From: Terriglobia bacterium
GTDB lineage: Bacteria; Acidobacteriota; Terriglobia; JAJPHL01; JAPKYU01
Assembly: GCA_965206645.1 (NCBI GenBank)
Contig: CBDBKE010000003.1
Span: 672,001 to 736,000 of the forward strand
Length of the DNA stretch: 64,000 nt
Direction of reading: 5' to 3'
Shown: in pieces, positions 44,851 through 52,059 of the stretch
How positions within the stretch are numbered: the stretch's first letter is position 1
Layout of the letters: each line of letters begins with the position of its first letter
Translations under genes and position numbers: made by a program
The notes under the pieces: generated by a model
The model's input: the letters and a program-made list of their open reading frames with translations, nothing else
Database searches by the model: none
What the model was told of the DNA's origin: nothing

Positions 44851-44945
44851 TGGCGGAAGGTTATGGGAATCGAACCCATCGCTGCTCGTGAGAAACAGCC
44901 ACCGGCTTTGAAGGCCGGGCGAGTCACCAGACCCGATTACCTTCC
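44851..44945 (-). tRNA. selC: tRNA-Sec (TCA)
   Basis: 95 nt, GGAAGG start, CTTCAAA anticodon loop, long variable arm, GTTCGATTC, GCCA end. Confidence 0.96.
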
Positions 44946-44989: not shown

Positions 44990-47464
44990 TCAACGAGAGG
45001 CAGTTCGTTCCAGAGCCCGCTCGGTGTACCGATACACCAGGTGGTTGGTGCATACTTCGTAGTAGCGCCGCTGGGTATACTCCTTCAAGCTGAAGGAGTG
45101 GGCATCCACAAAGGGAATCTGCGCTTCGCGCACCACCAGCCGCTGGAACACTTCGTTGGGCAAGGGGAAGGCACCACAGTGCAGCGTCACCTTTTCCGGC
45201 TGCCAGAGCAGGGGCATCTCCAGCTCGACCGGCTGGAGCGAAATCTCCTCTTGCAGTTTGTCAAACGCCTCCTCGCTCAGGCAAATCCCGGTGTTGTAGC
45301 GGACCAGGAACTCTTCCATGGCGCCTGCGGCGGCCTCTTCGGTGATGGTCTGGAACACGAACGCCCGGAAGAGCGACTGCTTGCTATCCAGCGCGCGGCG
45401 GGCCAGCTTGCTGCACCCGCTGAGCCGGTCGGCCAGGTTGATGGCCGAGGAGATCATGATCCGGGTCTCGCCGTCCAGCAGGTACATGGGCGTCGAGTTC
45501 TGCCAGCAGATTCCTATGCCAATCTCCAGCCGCGGCAAGTCCGCCTTCTCGGCCCTCGCATTGTACTGCTCGACCACGGCCATGATCTCCCGCGCCAAGC
45601 CACAGGCCCGGGCCACGGGATAACCGCCCAGCGCCGCACCTTATTTCTCGAACATTGCCAGAATCACCGCGTCGCCCTCAATGAACACCTTCTCACCGGC
45701 GTACTTGGGCAGCAGCTTGTTCAGCGGTTGGTAAAAGTTCAGACTGAAGTGGCTGGCCGGATTCAGGCCGCGGGCGAACAGGTCGGCGGTGAGCCGGGTG
45801 GAGTCACGCACGTCGGCTTTCAGAATCACGTGGCCTAGTATCTGTTCGCCCTGCGGCTTGTCCTCCGCCGGCAGCAGGAACTCGTACAGGGTGTTGTTGA
45901 TTCGGGAAAGCTGCCGGGTTTTTTCCTCAAATAGCAGGTTGACCCGCTCCATCAGGCCTTGCAGGGCCTGTAGTAGGCAATTGTCGCGGTGGTGCCGCAG
46001 GAAATCGCGAACGAAGCGAACGAGAAAGGCGCGGAGGTCACGTGGTTGATAGGTACGCACTCGCGCGGCGGCCTCTTCCAGGGTGCCTACGCTGGCCCGG
46101 GTCAGCTTGTAATGCGTGATCAGGTCGGTCACCTTCTTGAGTTCGGAAGGGTCCAGGAGGGCGCGTTTCAGTTGCTGCGGATGGATCGGCGGGCAGTAGT
46201 CCTGGTAGACGTTCGCCGTCTCGTAGGCGGCGGCGAAGCAGGGCAATAGCCCCAACTGCTGCGCTGCGTTATAAAATTCATCAACTAGCTGGCGCTGGAT
46301 CTCTAGCCTTTCCTTCAGGGCGCTCAGTTCTTTCCGCGGTGCCTTTCGCGCCTGCGCCTCAGCCAGCAGTTGCTCGGTGCGCACAGTACCGAGCAGCTGC
46401 TCCACATTTTCGGGGACGTTGAGCATCTCCGTCAGGTGCGCGTCGTAGGCTTCCGTCAACAGCCGCAGTTGTTCGGCCGACTGCCTCAGTTGTCTCTCCG
46501 GCTCCTCCAGGCGCCCCGCAAGATCGGGAGAGGCCGGAGGCGGGGTCTCGGGGCGGGGACCGAAGAGGCGTCCCAATCCCAATCCCAGCCCGCGCTCGGG
46601 AGGCTGGAGCTGGTCGCGCAGAGATGAGGTCCGGCTGGCCAATTGGTGATACTCCTGCTGACGGGTCTCCAGCTCGCGCGCCTCCGGTCCGACTGCGTCC
46701 ACCCCCTTGAGCATGGACTTCAGCCAGCGCTCCACGGATTCGTACAGGTCCGGGTCGCGGTGGAAGTTGCCCAACATGACGTACTTGGTTAGCTGAATGT
46801 AATCGTCACGGCCGGTTTCGGTGAACACCAACGGGTGAGAAAAGTAGGTGAACCAGGGACTGGCTTCGTCGCCGAAAAAGGATTCGCGCGTCTTGCGGAC
46901 CACACCAGCCTGCACTTCGTTAGCCAGCGACAGTAGTTCATTCGAAACGCGTCGGAAGACGTTCTTCTTGTCGGCCTGAAACTCGCTGAAGATTTCCTTC
47001 AGTTGGAAGGCGCGCAAGTTCCGATCGTGGCGCGGCCCTTCATACATCCGCAGCTTGTTCTTGCCCTCCATCTGGATGCGGCCGTACTGTTGCTGCACTT
47101 CCCAGCTCAGGTACTTGAAGAGGGCGACGTTTCCCAATAGGTCGATGTCGGGGTTGCGCGCCTCCTTGGCGTGACTGAGCGCACTGAGCAGTACCTCCTG
47201 CAACAGACGCTTGAATTCGTTGCGCTCCTGCGGCTTGGGCGGGCCCGGGTTCTGCTCCGCCAGCTCAGGCGCGCGGCTGTGCTTCATAAAGAGCTTGAGA
47301 ATGTAGCCCCTGGTGAAGCCGATGAAGCGGGAGCTCAGGTGGACGTCGTGGCGGACGTTGTCCACGCCCGGCACTAGCGATGGAAAGCGCAGGTCCGGCG
47401 CGGACCCGGCGAGGCGAACCGCCGCATACACGCGTTCCGGGCTGGAACGGGAGAACAGCGGCAT
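44990..47464 (-). pseudogene. Class III nucleotidyl-cyclase-like protein with in-frame TAA at 45641-45643
   Basis: KADVRDST, FIEGDA, then EIGIGI, AINLADRLSG in the same frame after the stop. Confidence 0.75.
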
Positions 47465-48204: not shown

Positions 48205-48750
<546 letters not shown>

Positions 48751-48928
48751 ATGCCTACCTCCAGTTTCTTGCAATTTCGGGATTCGCACAGGATTCCGTC
48801 CATGCGTTCGTTCCTTGCACGACCCCCGAATTATGCACCTAAATCCTGGCTTCGTCCAGTTTCTGGTAGCGGACACTCCAGTGCGGCAAGCGTCCTGCAT
48901 GGGCGGTGCGAGTTTACGGCTTTCCATC

Positions 48929-48957
48929 TTGACACCACGAGGACCCGAAGCTAGGAT
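48929..48957 (+). promoter_or_regulatory. sigma70 promoter
   Basis: TTGACA-N17-TAGGAT. Confidence 0.75.
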
Positions 48958-48963
48958 GCCCCT

Positions 48964-49160
48964 ACACGAGAAAGGAGGTGGTCGATGTTGCAGGATTCAT
49001 TATGTAGGGCCCGTGAGGTGGTCGCGCCTTAAGGCGGAATTTGCCTCAGAGCCGTCGTGTTTTCTTTCTGCTTGCCTGTGGCTGTAAAATTCCGCCCCAG
49101 GTAGTCTCACGCGGCTACCGGCGCCGGGCAGAAGGGGTCGGCCCTTCGGCCCGGCGTTTT
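48964..49160 (+). ncRNA. Candidate structured RNA of about 200 nt with 15-aa ORF (48985-49032)
   Basis: Promoter, AAAGGAGGTG SD, three hairpins, terminator. Confidence 0.55.
49122..49160 (+). terminator. Intrinsic terminator
   Basis: CGCCGGGC-AGAAGGG...CCCTTC-GGCCCGGCG-TTTT. Confidence 0.7.
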
Positions 49161-49267
49161 GCTTCTATCAGGGTGCTGGAAAACTAGCGGCTGGGGCCGC
49201 CCAGAACCGCTTGCTGACGCGCGCAGTTCCTTAACTGTAACCACTTGCCAAGCCGCAACCCACTGAT

Positions 49268-50341
49268 CTAAAACAGCTTGAACTTGATGGTCAGATACTT
49301 TTTCGGGTCCTTCCGGAAGTCGGCGATCAGGCCGCGCATCTCCAGGCTGAAGGTATTAACGTTCTCATAAAAAGCCTGGTCATGAAGGAACCTGCCGAAG
49401 GAACCCTCACCGCGTTCCAGCCGGGCGGCGATCTTGTCAATACGGTCCATCGCGGAATTGGCTCGGTTGTAAAACGACTCGTCCTTCAACAGCCGGCCGA
49501 CCGTCCCACGCCCAGCGTTCACGTCAGTTACCACACGATTGGCCCGGGTCATCAACTGGTCGGCGTTTTCGTAGAGCCCGGGATCATAGATGAACCTGCC
49601 CAAGGAACCCTTGCCCTCGTGCACTTCGTCAAGCACTCCGTCCACTTTCGTCACGCTGCTTCGGATCTCGTTGTACAGATCCTCGGTCATGAGCAGCTTG
49701 CCCAGGGTCCCCTTTCCCGCAGCAGCATTGGCAATTAGAAGGCGCGCGTCATTCACGGTCTGGTCCGCCTTCCGCCACAGCGCCTCGTCGTAGAGGAGCT
49801 TTCCCAGACTGCCTTCTCCGGACTCGACCTGCTCTATAACGCGGTCCACACGCCCCGCGATGCGGTTGAGTTTGGTCATTGCGTCGGCGCCCGTAGCTAG
49901 GACCTCACTGAGTTCCGGGGTTTCCTTGAGCTTGATCTCCCCGCCGGCCTGGATCAGCGGCTGCCCGGGACTACCCCGCGTAATATTGACGAAGCGTTGG
50001 CCCAGCAGCCCTTCGGCATCCAGCCTGGCCAGGGAGTCGGTGCGCAGTTCCTGCTGATACTTGCGCAGGATGCGCATGACCACCTCCACTGAGCGGTCGG
50101 TCTCGTGGCTGCCAGAGATGCGGATTTCCGCCACGTTGCCCACGTCAATGCCGGTCAGGCGCACCGGGTCGCCGGTCTTCAGCCCGGCGGCGTCCGCCAT
50201 GAAGACGCTGATGAGATATTTGCGCTCCAACAGGCCTTCGCCGGTCATCAGGAAGACCACGGTGGCAAAAATGATCAGGCTGGTCAGGACCAACAGGCCA
50301 ACGCGCAGTTGGGTCCACTGAAGTTGCTTGGGTTGCGGCAT
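49268..50341 (-). CDS. mlaD: MlaD/MCE family protein
   Basis: N-terminal TM, GLKTGDPVRLTGIDVG, GLLGQRFV, G(T/S)LG(K/R)L repeats. Confidence 0.9.
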   Translation of the reverse strand: MPQPKQLQWTQLRVGLLVLTSLIIFATVVFLMTGEGLLERKYLISVFMADAAGLKTGDPVRLTGIDVGNVAEIRISGSHETDRSVEVVMRILRKYQQELRTDSLARLDAEGLLGQRFVNITRGSPGQPLIQAGGEIKLKETPELSEVLATGADAMTKLNRIAGRVDRVIEQVESGEGSLGKLLYDEALWRKADQTVNDARLLIANAAAGKGTLGKLLMTEDLYNEIRSSVTKVDGVLDEVHEGKGSLGRFIYDPGLYENADQLMTRANRVVTDVNAGRGTVGRLLKDESFYNRANSAMDRIDKIAARLERGEGSFGRFLHDQAFYENVNTFSLEMRGLIADFRKDPKKYLTIKFKLF

Positions 50342-50359
50342 GGGACCTCCTCAAGGAAA

Positions 50360-51175
50360 CTACAAGACAAATTTTCGCACGTATGAGTCCTGCGAGCGAA
50401 ACAGTTCCTGATGGCTGCCGTCGAAGACGATTTCGCCTTCGCGCAGGACCAAGAACGAAGTGTTGGTGTCCACCTGTCGACCGTCGGAATCAGCGGGCAG
50501 CAGGCGACCAGCCGTTTCATCAAAATAGTAGTTGGCCACCACGTCGGCGTCCTGGAGGCGGTGCGTCACCAGCAGGCTGCTGACGTCCTGCAGGTCGCCC
50601 AGCCGGATGATCAACGAGACGATGGTGCGGCTGGTGACCGGGTCCAGGCCGCCGGTGGGCGAATCGTAGAGCATCAGCGGCGGCTCGCCGACGAAAGCCC
50701 GAGCAATCGCCACCCGGCGGCGCATGCCCCCGGACAGCTCCGAGGTCAGTTTTTGCATGGCGTCTTCCAGGTCCACAAAGCACAGCGCCTGGCGCACCCG
50801 TCGCTCCTCCTCCTCGGGCGGTAGGGCCCGGTCCCCCTGGAAGACGTAGCCGACGTTCTCGGCCACACTGAGCGAGTCGAACAGCGCGCTTTCCTGGAAC
50901 ACCATGCCGATTTTCCCGCGGATGGGATACAGCTCCCGCTCACGCAACTCCGTGATGTCCTGTCCAAACACCGAGACGCGACCCGAATCGGGACGGAACA
51001 GCCCCAGCGCCGTCTTCAGCAATACCGATTTTCCCGAGGCCGTGGCTCCCAGTAGCACCTTGGTTTCACTGCGCGCGAGCCGGAAGCTGATGTTGCGCAG
51101 CACGGGCGCATCGTCCAGGGTCAGTCGGACCCGGTCGAACTCCAGCATCACCTCCGAACTGCGCTTCAGCGCCAC
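50360..51175 (-). CDS. mlaF: MlaF-like ABC ATPase
   Basis: GATASGKS, FQESALFDS, LSGGMRRR. Confidence 0.9.
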   Translation of the reverse strand: MALKRSSEVMLEFDRVRLTLDDAPVLRNISFRLARSETKVLLGATASGKSVLLKTALGLFRPDSGRVSVFGQDITELRERELYPIRGKIGMVFQESALFDSLSVAENVGYVFQGDRALPPEEEERRVRQALCFVDLEDAMQKLTSELSGGMRRRVAIARAFVGEPPLMLYDSPTGGLDPVTSRTIVSLIIRLGDLQDVSSLLVTHRLQDADVVANYYFDETAGRLLPADSDGRQVDTNTSFLVLREGEIVFDGSHQELFRSQDSYVRKFVL

Positions 51176-51954
51176 TACATGACGGCCAGGAGGAACTTGG
51201 TAATGAAGAAATCGGTAGCCAGGATCAGCACCGAAGCGGCCACCACCGCCTGGGTCGTCGAGCGTCCCACCCCCTCGGTGCCGCCACGGGTGGTCAGTCC
51301 GAAATAACAGCCCACCACGGAGATGATGAAACCGAAGACGAACGGCTTCACCAGGCCCTGGAACACGTCTTCGAATTCCAGGGCCTGATAGGCGCTGGTC
51401 CAGTACTGGATCGGGTCCATTCGGATGATGAAGAAGGAGACCACGAAGCCGCCGACCAGACCCACGAAATCGGCGATCACCGTCAGCAGCGGCAACATCG
51501 TCACTGTAGCCACCACCCGAGGGGTCACCAGTTTCTTGCTGGGGTCGGTGCCCAGGGCGCGCATGGCGTCTATCTGCTCGCTCACCACCATGGAGCCCAG
51601 CTCACTGGCCATGCCAGAACTGTTGCGCCCGGCCACCATCAACGCCGTCAGAACCGGTCCCAGCTCTTTGACTAGCGACAGGGCCACCAGTTGACCGGCG
51701 AGGGAGACAGCGCCGAAAGTTTGCAGCATCTGGGAGGTCTGCAACGCCAGCACCGCCCCGGTGAAGAACCCGGCCAGGATCGCAATAGGCAGCGAGCCTA
51801 CACCGATGATGTCCATCTGGACCAGAATGTCGGCCCAATAACGGGGGCGGGAGAAGAGGTTTCCGATGGCCCGCGCGCCCAGAAAGGTGAACTCCTGGAC
51901 GGCGAAGACTTTGCCTTTGGCAAAATCGGCAGGCAGGGTGAAGATGCGGTTCAA
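51175..51954 (-). CDS. mlaE: MlaE-family ABC permease
   Basis: [25 protein letters not shown]. Confidence 0.92.
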
Positions 51955-52059
51955 GGTGATTCGTTTTTTCTCACCGCGCGGCTTCCAAATTCCAATGTAA
52001 CACAAACTGCCCGCTCCGACGCACGCGCTCCCAGCGGTACAATAGAATGCCAACGCGCG

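Follow-up and report, generated by a model that had tools for sequence, protein, structure and literature searches.

What kind of gene occupies positions 48929-49165 of the window, the whole 64,000-nucleotide stretch of a Terriglobia bacterium contig that was analysed here? The initial annotation, made from the sequence alone, described an orphan structured transcript with a very strong Shine-Dalgarno (SD) sequence, a 15-codon open reading frame and a duplicated GAGGTGGTCG motif, and proposed a ribosome-binding or sponge small RNA, a dual-function RNA or a micropeptide gene with switchable structure. All the sequence features that it listed were found in place, and the element is laid out as follows, together with the operon that faces it:

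48929-49165, + strand: whole element, from promoter to terminator
48929-48957, + strand: promoter-like site, TTGACA at 48929-48934, a 17-base spacer and TAGGAT at 48952-48957
48964-48968, + strand: predicted 5' end of the RNA, ACACG
48965-48968 with 49012-49015, + strand: helix P0, CACG with CGTG (RNAalifold, covariation)
48969-48983, + strand: extended SD AGAAAGGAGGTGGTC, complementary to the 3' tail of the organism's own 16S rRNA
48985-49032, + strand: 15-codon frame MLQDSLCRAREVVAP, from ATG at 48985 to the stop codon TAA at 49030-49032
49017-49026, + strand: 5' strand of helix H1, GGTGGTCGCG, core of the second GAGGTGGTCG motif (49015-49024)
49028-49042 with 49087-49101, + strand: helix H2, which contains the stop codon and closes a variable apical domain (49043-49086)
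49102-49109, + strand: asymmetric internal loop TAGTCTCA (family consensus RAAUYC...)
49110-49119, + strand: 3' strand of H1, CGCGGCTACC (covariation)
49121-49165, + strand: intrinsic terminator, a two-tier GC hairpin (49121-49157) followed by TTTTGCTT
49268-52053, - strand: mlaD, ABC ATPase (mlaF) and mlaE, an operon convergent with the small RNA (Pfam)

Boundaries of the transcription unit

Judged by its sequence, the locus is probably a real, stand-alone, single-copy gene for an RNA of about 200 bases. The annotated promoter is the only promoter-like site on the + strand between 48300 and 49700, an interval in which the two strands together hold two such sites against 0.5 expected. Its arrangement is kept among relatives: TTGnnn-N16-18-TAnnnT ending 6-8 bases 5' of ACAC was found in 129 of 133 distinct relatives and in none of the control windows, which were placed 400 bases further downstream. 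The terminator was likewise borne out, as a folded GC hairpin with its 3' tract; the hairpin at 49121-49157 appears on folding and is absent from the output of a strict terminator scan, and a hairpin lies directly 3' of H1 in every relative examined.

The element is present in four metatranscriptome runs, all from one study. A contig of 252 bases spans 48973-49223 (one study; the contig carries no strand information and could derive from DNA carry-over), and a second of 171 bases, from a variant strain, covers 48985-49156 and ends at 49156 (again strandless, and weak as evidence). Further RNA contigs connect 49002-49400 with the mlaD side; these are strandless and such contigs can fuse convergent transcripts, but because they reach 49002 from the mlaD side, the 3' ends of the small RNA and the Mla transcripts may overlap. 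RNA contigs leave 48820-48963 uncovered, a gap that says nothing about where the transcript starts.

Membership of the Ms_IGR-5 family

The Rfam check proposed in the initial annotation returned no match at the locus at gathering thresholds, neither to tmRNA nor to any other curated family, but it did return a significant full-length match below threshold. When matches were reported by E-value, 48964-49164 (+) aligned to all 184 positions (1-184) of RF02471, the Ms_IGR-5 family, with a score of 31.8 bits against a gathering cut-off of 45 (E-values of 1.7e-5 in the region and 2.8e-5 genome-wide). This was the only sub-threshold Rfam match at the locus, and the alignment takes in both conserved blocks of the family, ACACnnGRAAGGAGGUGGUC and GUGAGGUGG. 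A second, weak RF02471 match in the genome, C4, had an E-value of 0.6 and was taken as noise.

At E ≤ 0.01, RF02471 matched 18 of 101 relatives and none of 14 control genomes, Corynebacterium glutamicum among the latter; one relative from the same order, G010, reached 55.2 bits and was the sole one of the 101 above the cut-off. The element was found by blastn in 19 of 61 relatives. A covariance model (R1), built from 36 acidobacterial and actinobacterial copies, matched each of 100 loci exactly once and over its full length; the score was 69.5 bits (E = 1.4e-14) for the window copy and 82-112 bits for actinobacterial copies, with the mycobacterial ones at 101-112 bits. Since RF02471 aligns over its full length, G010 exceeds the cut-off and a single model fits both phyla, the window element can be regarded as a divergent Ms_IGR-5 member. 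On these sequence comparisons it is an acidobacterial representative of a catalogued family for which no function was found in print, and the description as an orphan has to be given up.

The window copy shares with Ms_IGR-5 the order of its blocks (the first conserved block, a short frame, the second conserved block, a variable domain, the RAAUYC loop, CAGYCACC and a terminator), the helices P0, H1 and H2, its single-copy state and its own promoter. It differs in that its host belongs to Acidobacteriota, whereas Ms_IGR-5 has been described as actinobacterial; in its frame of 15 codons, against mostly 12 in Ms_IGR-5; in its terminator, a simple hairpin without the GUCC loop seen in actinobacterial copies; and in the distal sequence of H1 (UCGCG/CGCGG). 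P0 and H1 are missing from the RF02471 consensus structure in Rfam.

According to the passages that mention it, Ms_IGR-5 was first reported in Mycobacterium smegmatis, where IGR-5 corresponds to ncMSMEG15794c (PMC10454040), was validated by RNA-seq in S. lividans (PMC8079986) and forms a defined transcription unit in S. avermitilis (PMC8780764), and Ribo-seq placed ribosome-protected reads on it in M. abscessus and M. smegmatis (PMC4974804). The main-text passages that name Ms_IGR-5 or RF02471 in the papers searched give neither a function nor a host outside the actinobacteria. Literature searches under Rv0812/0813-type sRNA names found nothing, those for an anti-Shine-Dalgarno sRNA combined with an actinobacterial small ORF yielded no paper on Ms_IGR-5 among the titles and abstracts of the matches listed, and Shell et al. 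2015 (PMC4633059) contains no passage on the locus.

Distribution among genomes

Relatives were gathered by an exact-pattern scan of species-representative genomes, which demanded the SD and the second motif and left start, frame and stop free. The resulting collection of at least 120 loci comes from Actinomycetota, Acidobacteriota (Terriglobia, Blastocatellia, Pyrinomonadaceae) and one Zixibacteria genome. Surveys by phylum with R1 (E ≤ 1e-4, with filters that lose weak matches) gave the following counts:

Acidobacteriota: match in 15 of 151 genomes
Actinomycetota: match in 73 of 151 genomes (67 of 145 when six unpublished genomes are left out)
Phylum of the Zixibacteria-labelled genome: match in 38 of 101 genomes

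Nearly every matching genome carries one copy, and G264 and G454 carry two each. The host range under which RF02471 is filed, actinobacteria, does not describe this distribution, as the window is acidobacterial and Zixibacteria-labelled genomes are carriers too; the acidobacterial copy thus shows that the Ms_IGR-5 family is not confined to actinobacteria. The patchiness of the RNA, which was not found in 136 of the 151 sampled Acidobacteriota genomes by a survey that loses weak matches, argues against an essential housekeeping role.

Secondary structure and covariation

P0, H1 and H2 were all predicted unaided by RNAalifold from 10 close relatives, and the acidobacterial copies contribute independent covariation for these core helices. 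P0 joins the very start of the RNA to the reading frame, its 3' strand being codon CGT plus the G of GAG. The general rule is that ACACN pairs with N'GTG just before the second motif: in a set of 100 relatives three of the pairs hardly vary, and the fourth one passes through all four Watson-Crick types (GC 44, CG 22, UA 14, AU 11, other 9). A coupled change of ACAC to ACGC and of GTG to GCG is present in two relatives.

H1 is a long-range helix of GGUGGUCGCG with CGCGGCUACC, the latter just before the terminator. RNAalifold pairs GGTGGTCG at 49017-49024 with CGGCTACC at 49112-49119, extendable to 10 pairs in the window, and 7 of the 10 pairs change on both sides. The duplication reported in the initial annotation acquires a structural meaning here, for the second GAGGTGGTCG at 49015-49024 turned out to be the 5' strand of this helix; the 3' strand resembles the 16S tail, reading ..UCACC in most copies and GCUACC in the window. 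H2 was predicted as 49028-49030 with 49099-49101 and 49032-49036 with 49093-49097, and is continued by the long stem noted in the initial annotation, GGCGGAATTT with AAATTCCGCC at 49033-49042/49087-49096. All six modelled pairs of H2 change on both sides among 100 relatives. The apical domain that it closes ranges from about 20 to 180 bases, and the internal loop at 49102-49109 keeps its position and, in part, its sequence in two alignments (A1 and A3).

In a MAFFT alignment of 50 sequences, 90.0% of the cells of P0 and H1 were paired, compared with 81.2% after shuffling (none of 500 shuffles reached the observed value) and at most 52.6% in slid controls, and 9 of the 14 pairs change on both sides. 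The R1 alignment of 100 sequences, which was fitted to the model, gave 84.9% versus 74.9%, and two-sided changes at 15 of its 20 pairs. The last six codons of the frame and its stop codon lie within P0, H1 and H2.

In actinobacterial copies the data also support a pseudoknot between GGACN of the frame and N'GUCC, located in a hairpin loop of the terminator domain. Of 74 such copies, 73 contain GUCC, which falls in a predicted loop in 67; the fifth pair, N:N', has a Watson-Crick form in 46 of these 73 and a G-U form in 6. A search for a counterpart gave nothing in 47 copies, nearly all acidobacterial and among them the window copy. Two further pairings, seen by eye only, were inconsistent across clades and were rejected, namely a GGUCC/GGAC hairpin around the start codon and base pairs between the RAAUYC loop and a GAU codon in the frame.

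One structural proposal of the initial annotation, the local hairpin GGTAGTC/GGCTACC, already fails among members of the genus, where GGTAGTC is replaced by GGTAATC in L025 and by GGTACTC in L030; it is broken in L007 and L029 as well. Forcing it gave -73.6 kcal/mol, 16 kcal/mol worse than the minimum free energy (MFE) structure, and its 3' arm is the conserved H1 partner of the second GAGGTGGTCG.

Ribosome-binding site and reading frame

The sequence AGAAAGGAGGTG begins at 48969 (+), immediately after the predicted 5' end, and the 16S rRNA 3' end of the same genome reads ...GGATCACCTCCTTTCT. By direct comparison, 48969-48983 forms 15 contiguous pairs with this tail, one of them G-U, so that the very strong SD that had been annotated is indeed present. 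RNA bases 6-20 are the complement of essentially the whole free 16S 3' tail, and a match of about 15-16 bases is approximately as long as the free tail permits. In alignment A1 (50 sequences), AAGGAGGTG and two more bases of the SD block are invariant, although most of these were fixed by the collecting pattern; because that pattern required both the SD and the second motif, and because the relatives are not independent of each other, the invariance of the two blocks is in part an effect of ascertainment.

Start, frame and stop were left free in the collection and could be compared across 123 distinct 5' halves. An ATG, GTG or TTG located 5-14 bases past GGAGG, in frame with NGT-GAG-GTG-GCN and open up to the motif, was found in 122 of the 123, as against 5 and 0 with an open frame and a start in the other two frames. 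The annotated ORF is the window's version of this kept frame. The stop codon occupies one and the same place in 121 of the 122 (TAG 96, TGA 19, TAA 7, never TGG). The interval between the SD and the second motif fills all three classes modulo 3 (27/57/39), so the conservation of the frame is not a by-product of fixed RNA spacing. The ribosome-binding reading put forward in the initial annotation fits both the complementarity to the 16S tail and the conservation of start, frame and stop.

Pairing partners of the SD

The initial annotation had also suggested that a TTTCTTTCT loop pairs with the SD, yet the complementarity is no better than in shuffled sequences (z = +0.33). As a family trait, an internal anti-SD in the variable domain was rejected, with a median z of -0.27 (mononucleotide shuffles) and p ≤ 0.05 in 17 of 119 relatives; only certain lineages show it strongly, Pyrinomonadaceae with 13 pairs for example. 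In L052, L068, L111 and L123 (Pyrinomonadaceae) and in L088 (Phycicoccus), 9-13 bases of the variable domain imitate the 16S tail (CCUUCUUUCC and CCUCCUUUC are examples) and could mask the ribosome site of the same RNA, with z about -4 to -6; this mimic is lineage-specific and absent in the window. Long Terriglobales copies (L046, L048, L053, L060, L066, L080, L102 and others, with 200-280 bases to H1) have ACCACCUCUUGGUCAAUCC just 5' of the 3' strand of H1, and within it ACCACCUC, conserved in many genomes, is a near-perfect complement of GAGGUGGU in the SD.

A different alternative pairing arises in the window's genus. Because the 10-mer GAGGTGGTCG is common to the SD copy and the second motif, both are able to pair with 49110-49119. 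The fold in which the SD copy does so (fold B) is the single-sequence MFE structure, at -89.9 kcal/mol, and the conserved fold A, at -81.6 kcal/mol, is 8.3 kcal/mol less stable. Across 121 relatives, the MFE partner of the H1 3' strand was the second motif in 72, the SD in 9, another segment in 28 and none in 12; all four members of the window's genus are among the nine. From these models, competition between the SD and the second GGTGGTCG for one partner is a plausible switch in this genus, and that part of the annotated switchable structure stands; as a family trait it does not, since the SD-sequestering alternative occurs in 9 of 121 relatives only.

Candidate functions

Very few bacterial small RNAs are known to be common to several phyla, and those that are, such as tmRNA, 6S RNA, SRP RNA and RNase P RNA, serve core machines. 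The Ms_IGR-5 family is near-single-copy and multi-phylum, and its best-conserved part is the complement of the 16S tail, which points to a direct link with the ribosome. The best explanation, to which we give slightly less than an even chance, is that the locus encodes an acidobacterial Ms_IGR-5 RNA on which a ribosome docks and translates the mini-frame, that folding and translation exclude each other, and that the RNA serves as a decoy or gauge of free ribosomes. In such a scheme the partner would be the ribosome itself, as 30S or 70S, docking on the exposed super-strong site and initiating there. Translation would have to melt P0, H1 and H2, which would make ribosome passage and the compact fold mutually exclusive, and the RNA would alternate between a compact untranslated form and an opened translated one. 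H1 may mimic an SD:anti-SD duplex within the RNA; in the window's genus, the SD might take over the partner strand of H1 and thereby create an off state; and the fixed stop would keep ribosomes from entering the 3' domain. The RNA would thus act as a decoy or sensor of free ribosomes, via neither its peptide nor a neighbouring gene. With the ribosome as ligand, this is the role that we infer to be the most likely from the sequence features described above.

The logic recalls that of 6S RNA, a single-copy RNA of several phyla that acts as a decoy for RNA polymerase by mimicking the natural nucleic-acid ligand of this machine. The likeness, that of a housekeeping-type, single-copy, multi-phylum RNA imitating the ligand of a core machine, is one of analogy only: the proposed target here is the ribosome and not RNA polymerase, and the two RNAs are unrelated in sequence and fold. 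A broader version of the proposal, which we regard as speculative and rather doubtful, is that Ms_IGR-5-type RNAs are ribosome decoys across phyla with a 6S-like logic: they would capture the full anti-SD tail, hold an initiating ribosome at a helix junction mimicking the SD:anti-SD duplex, be reset by translation of the mini-frame to its fixed stop, and so tune the ribosomes free for SD-led versus leaderless mRNAs.

Somewhat less probable still is a small RNA that base-pairs with other mRNAs, or a dual-function RNA, in which the mini-frame gates or stabilises the molecule and the effector is a loop or the RAAUYC internal loop. Known dual-function RNAs, SgrS/SgrT, RNAIII/hld and SR1/SR1P, combine a conserved, active peptide with a separate mRNA-pairing seed. 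The window RNA resembles them as a small, separately transcribed and structured RNA with a small reading frame, but its peptide is unconserved, it has no evident seed and its frame lies inside the core helices. A single-copy gene with its own promoter and terminator is typical of trans-acting sRNAs, the conserved asymmetric loop at 49102-49109 has no assigned partner, and the title of Li et al. 2013, cited in PMC10454040, indicates that Ms_IGR-5 first came to light as an sRNA through a pull-down that used a foreign Hfq. Against this reading, the best-conserved bases are the anti-16S block and the helix strands, with no free seed, and the apical domain is hypervariable in both length and sequence. 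Conservation over three phyla next to unrelated neighbours would also be unusual for a target-specific regulator.

We consider it unlikely that the locus is a micropeptide gene, with a peptide of 11-20 residues as effector and the 3' structure as a stabilising untranslated region. The very strong ribosome site and the conserved start, frame and stop would suit a functional peptide as well, an Asp codon recurs at residues 3-5 in Terriglobia relatives, and the long acidobacterial frames, which are few and closely related, show a mildly lower second-position diversity (0.15-0.35). The pattern of conservation nevertheless follows the RNA. The C-terminal residues that are kept (x-E-V-A-x-x) are all coded by bases paired in P0 or H1, and since the last six codons and the stop are inside helices, the conserved 'EVA' can be ascribed to RNA constraint. 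Just ahead of Glu, R, C, S and G replace one another precisely as the RNA pair demands, because the first base of this codon, NGT, pairs with RNA base 5. Among the N-terminal codons, diversity was 0.43, 0.33 and 0.43 at the first, second and third positions, and the frame varies from 11 to 20 codons in length. The comparison of covariation with codon conservation suggested by the initial annotation was thus positive for the helices, which covary, and negative for the codons, which show no third-position excess. Outside the codons fixed by RNA pairing the peptide is unconserved, contrary to the micropeptide reading. Read from the alignments, start, frame and stop are under selection and the peptide sequence is not conserved; what the acidobacterial copies add is that selection acts on the frame, not on the peptide.

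Gene neighbourhood

There is no co-oriented gene directly downstream of the element, the adjacent genes being mlaD, mlaF and mlaE on the opposite strand, and the next + strand ORF of at least 70 amino acids clear of these genes starts at 51691. A Pfam survey of 132 flanking ORFs at 38 loci found downstream genes of mixed orientation and unrelated families, and no gene neighbourhood conserved across the 38 loci; synteny is clade-local only, as in mycobacteria, where the RNA is accompanied by a class IV aminotransferase and a convergent THAP4-type haem-binding protein. With flanking genes unrelated between clades and downstream orientation mixed, an attenuator or a dedicated partner gene is excluded, in agreement with the initial annotation, which had argued from the lack of a downstream gene. 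A comparable RNA that does derive from an attenuator is rnTrpL (peTrpL) of Sinorhizobium, which is reported to be released upstream of trpE(G) and to act in trans (PMC6614838); the window RNA is similar in being short, with a leader-type mini-frame and a terminator, and differs in its SD, which matches the entire 16S tail, and in lacking a downstream gene and regulatory codons. It is very hard to credit that the element works in cis, as a leader or attenuator, or that it belongs to the convergent Mla operon as part of its 3' untranslated region or as its terminator: a short frame followed by a terminator has the layout of leader-peptide attenuators, and strandless RNA contigs that may merge convergent transcripts link the locus to the mlaD side, but the promoter, the SD and the Rfam match are all on the + strand, opposite to the Mla genes, and the neighbours at the 38 loci are unrelated.

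On the other side of the element, two features of the - strand drew attention in their own right:

48205-48750, - strand: secreted-type AhpC/TSA peroxiredoxin gene, just upstream of the small RNA (Pfam)
44855-44945, - strand: tRNA-Sec, the sole Rfam gathering-level match in the window

The tRNA-Sec lies 3.3 kb from the peroxiredoxin gene, and between them is an ORF of 607 residues (45641-47464, -) that had no Pfam match at E ≤ 0.01. Ordinary ORF calling splits the peroxiredoxin gene into 48526-48927 and 48205-48516. It has an in-frame TGA at codon 75, in the context FTGG-U-TKE, and when read through this codon it matches the full Pfam AhpC-TSA profile (1-124 of 124, 135 bits), making the peroxiredoxin a likely selenoprotein.
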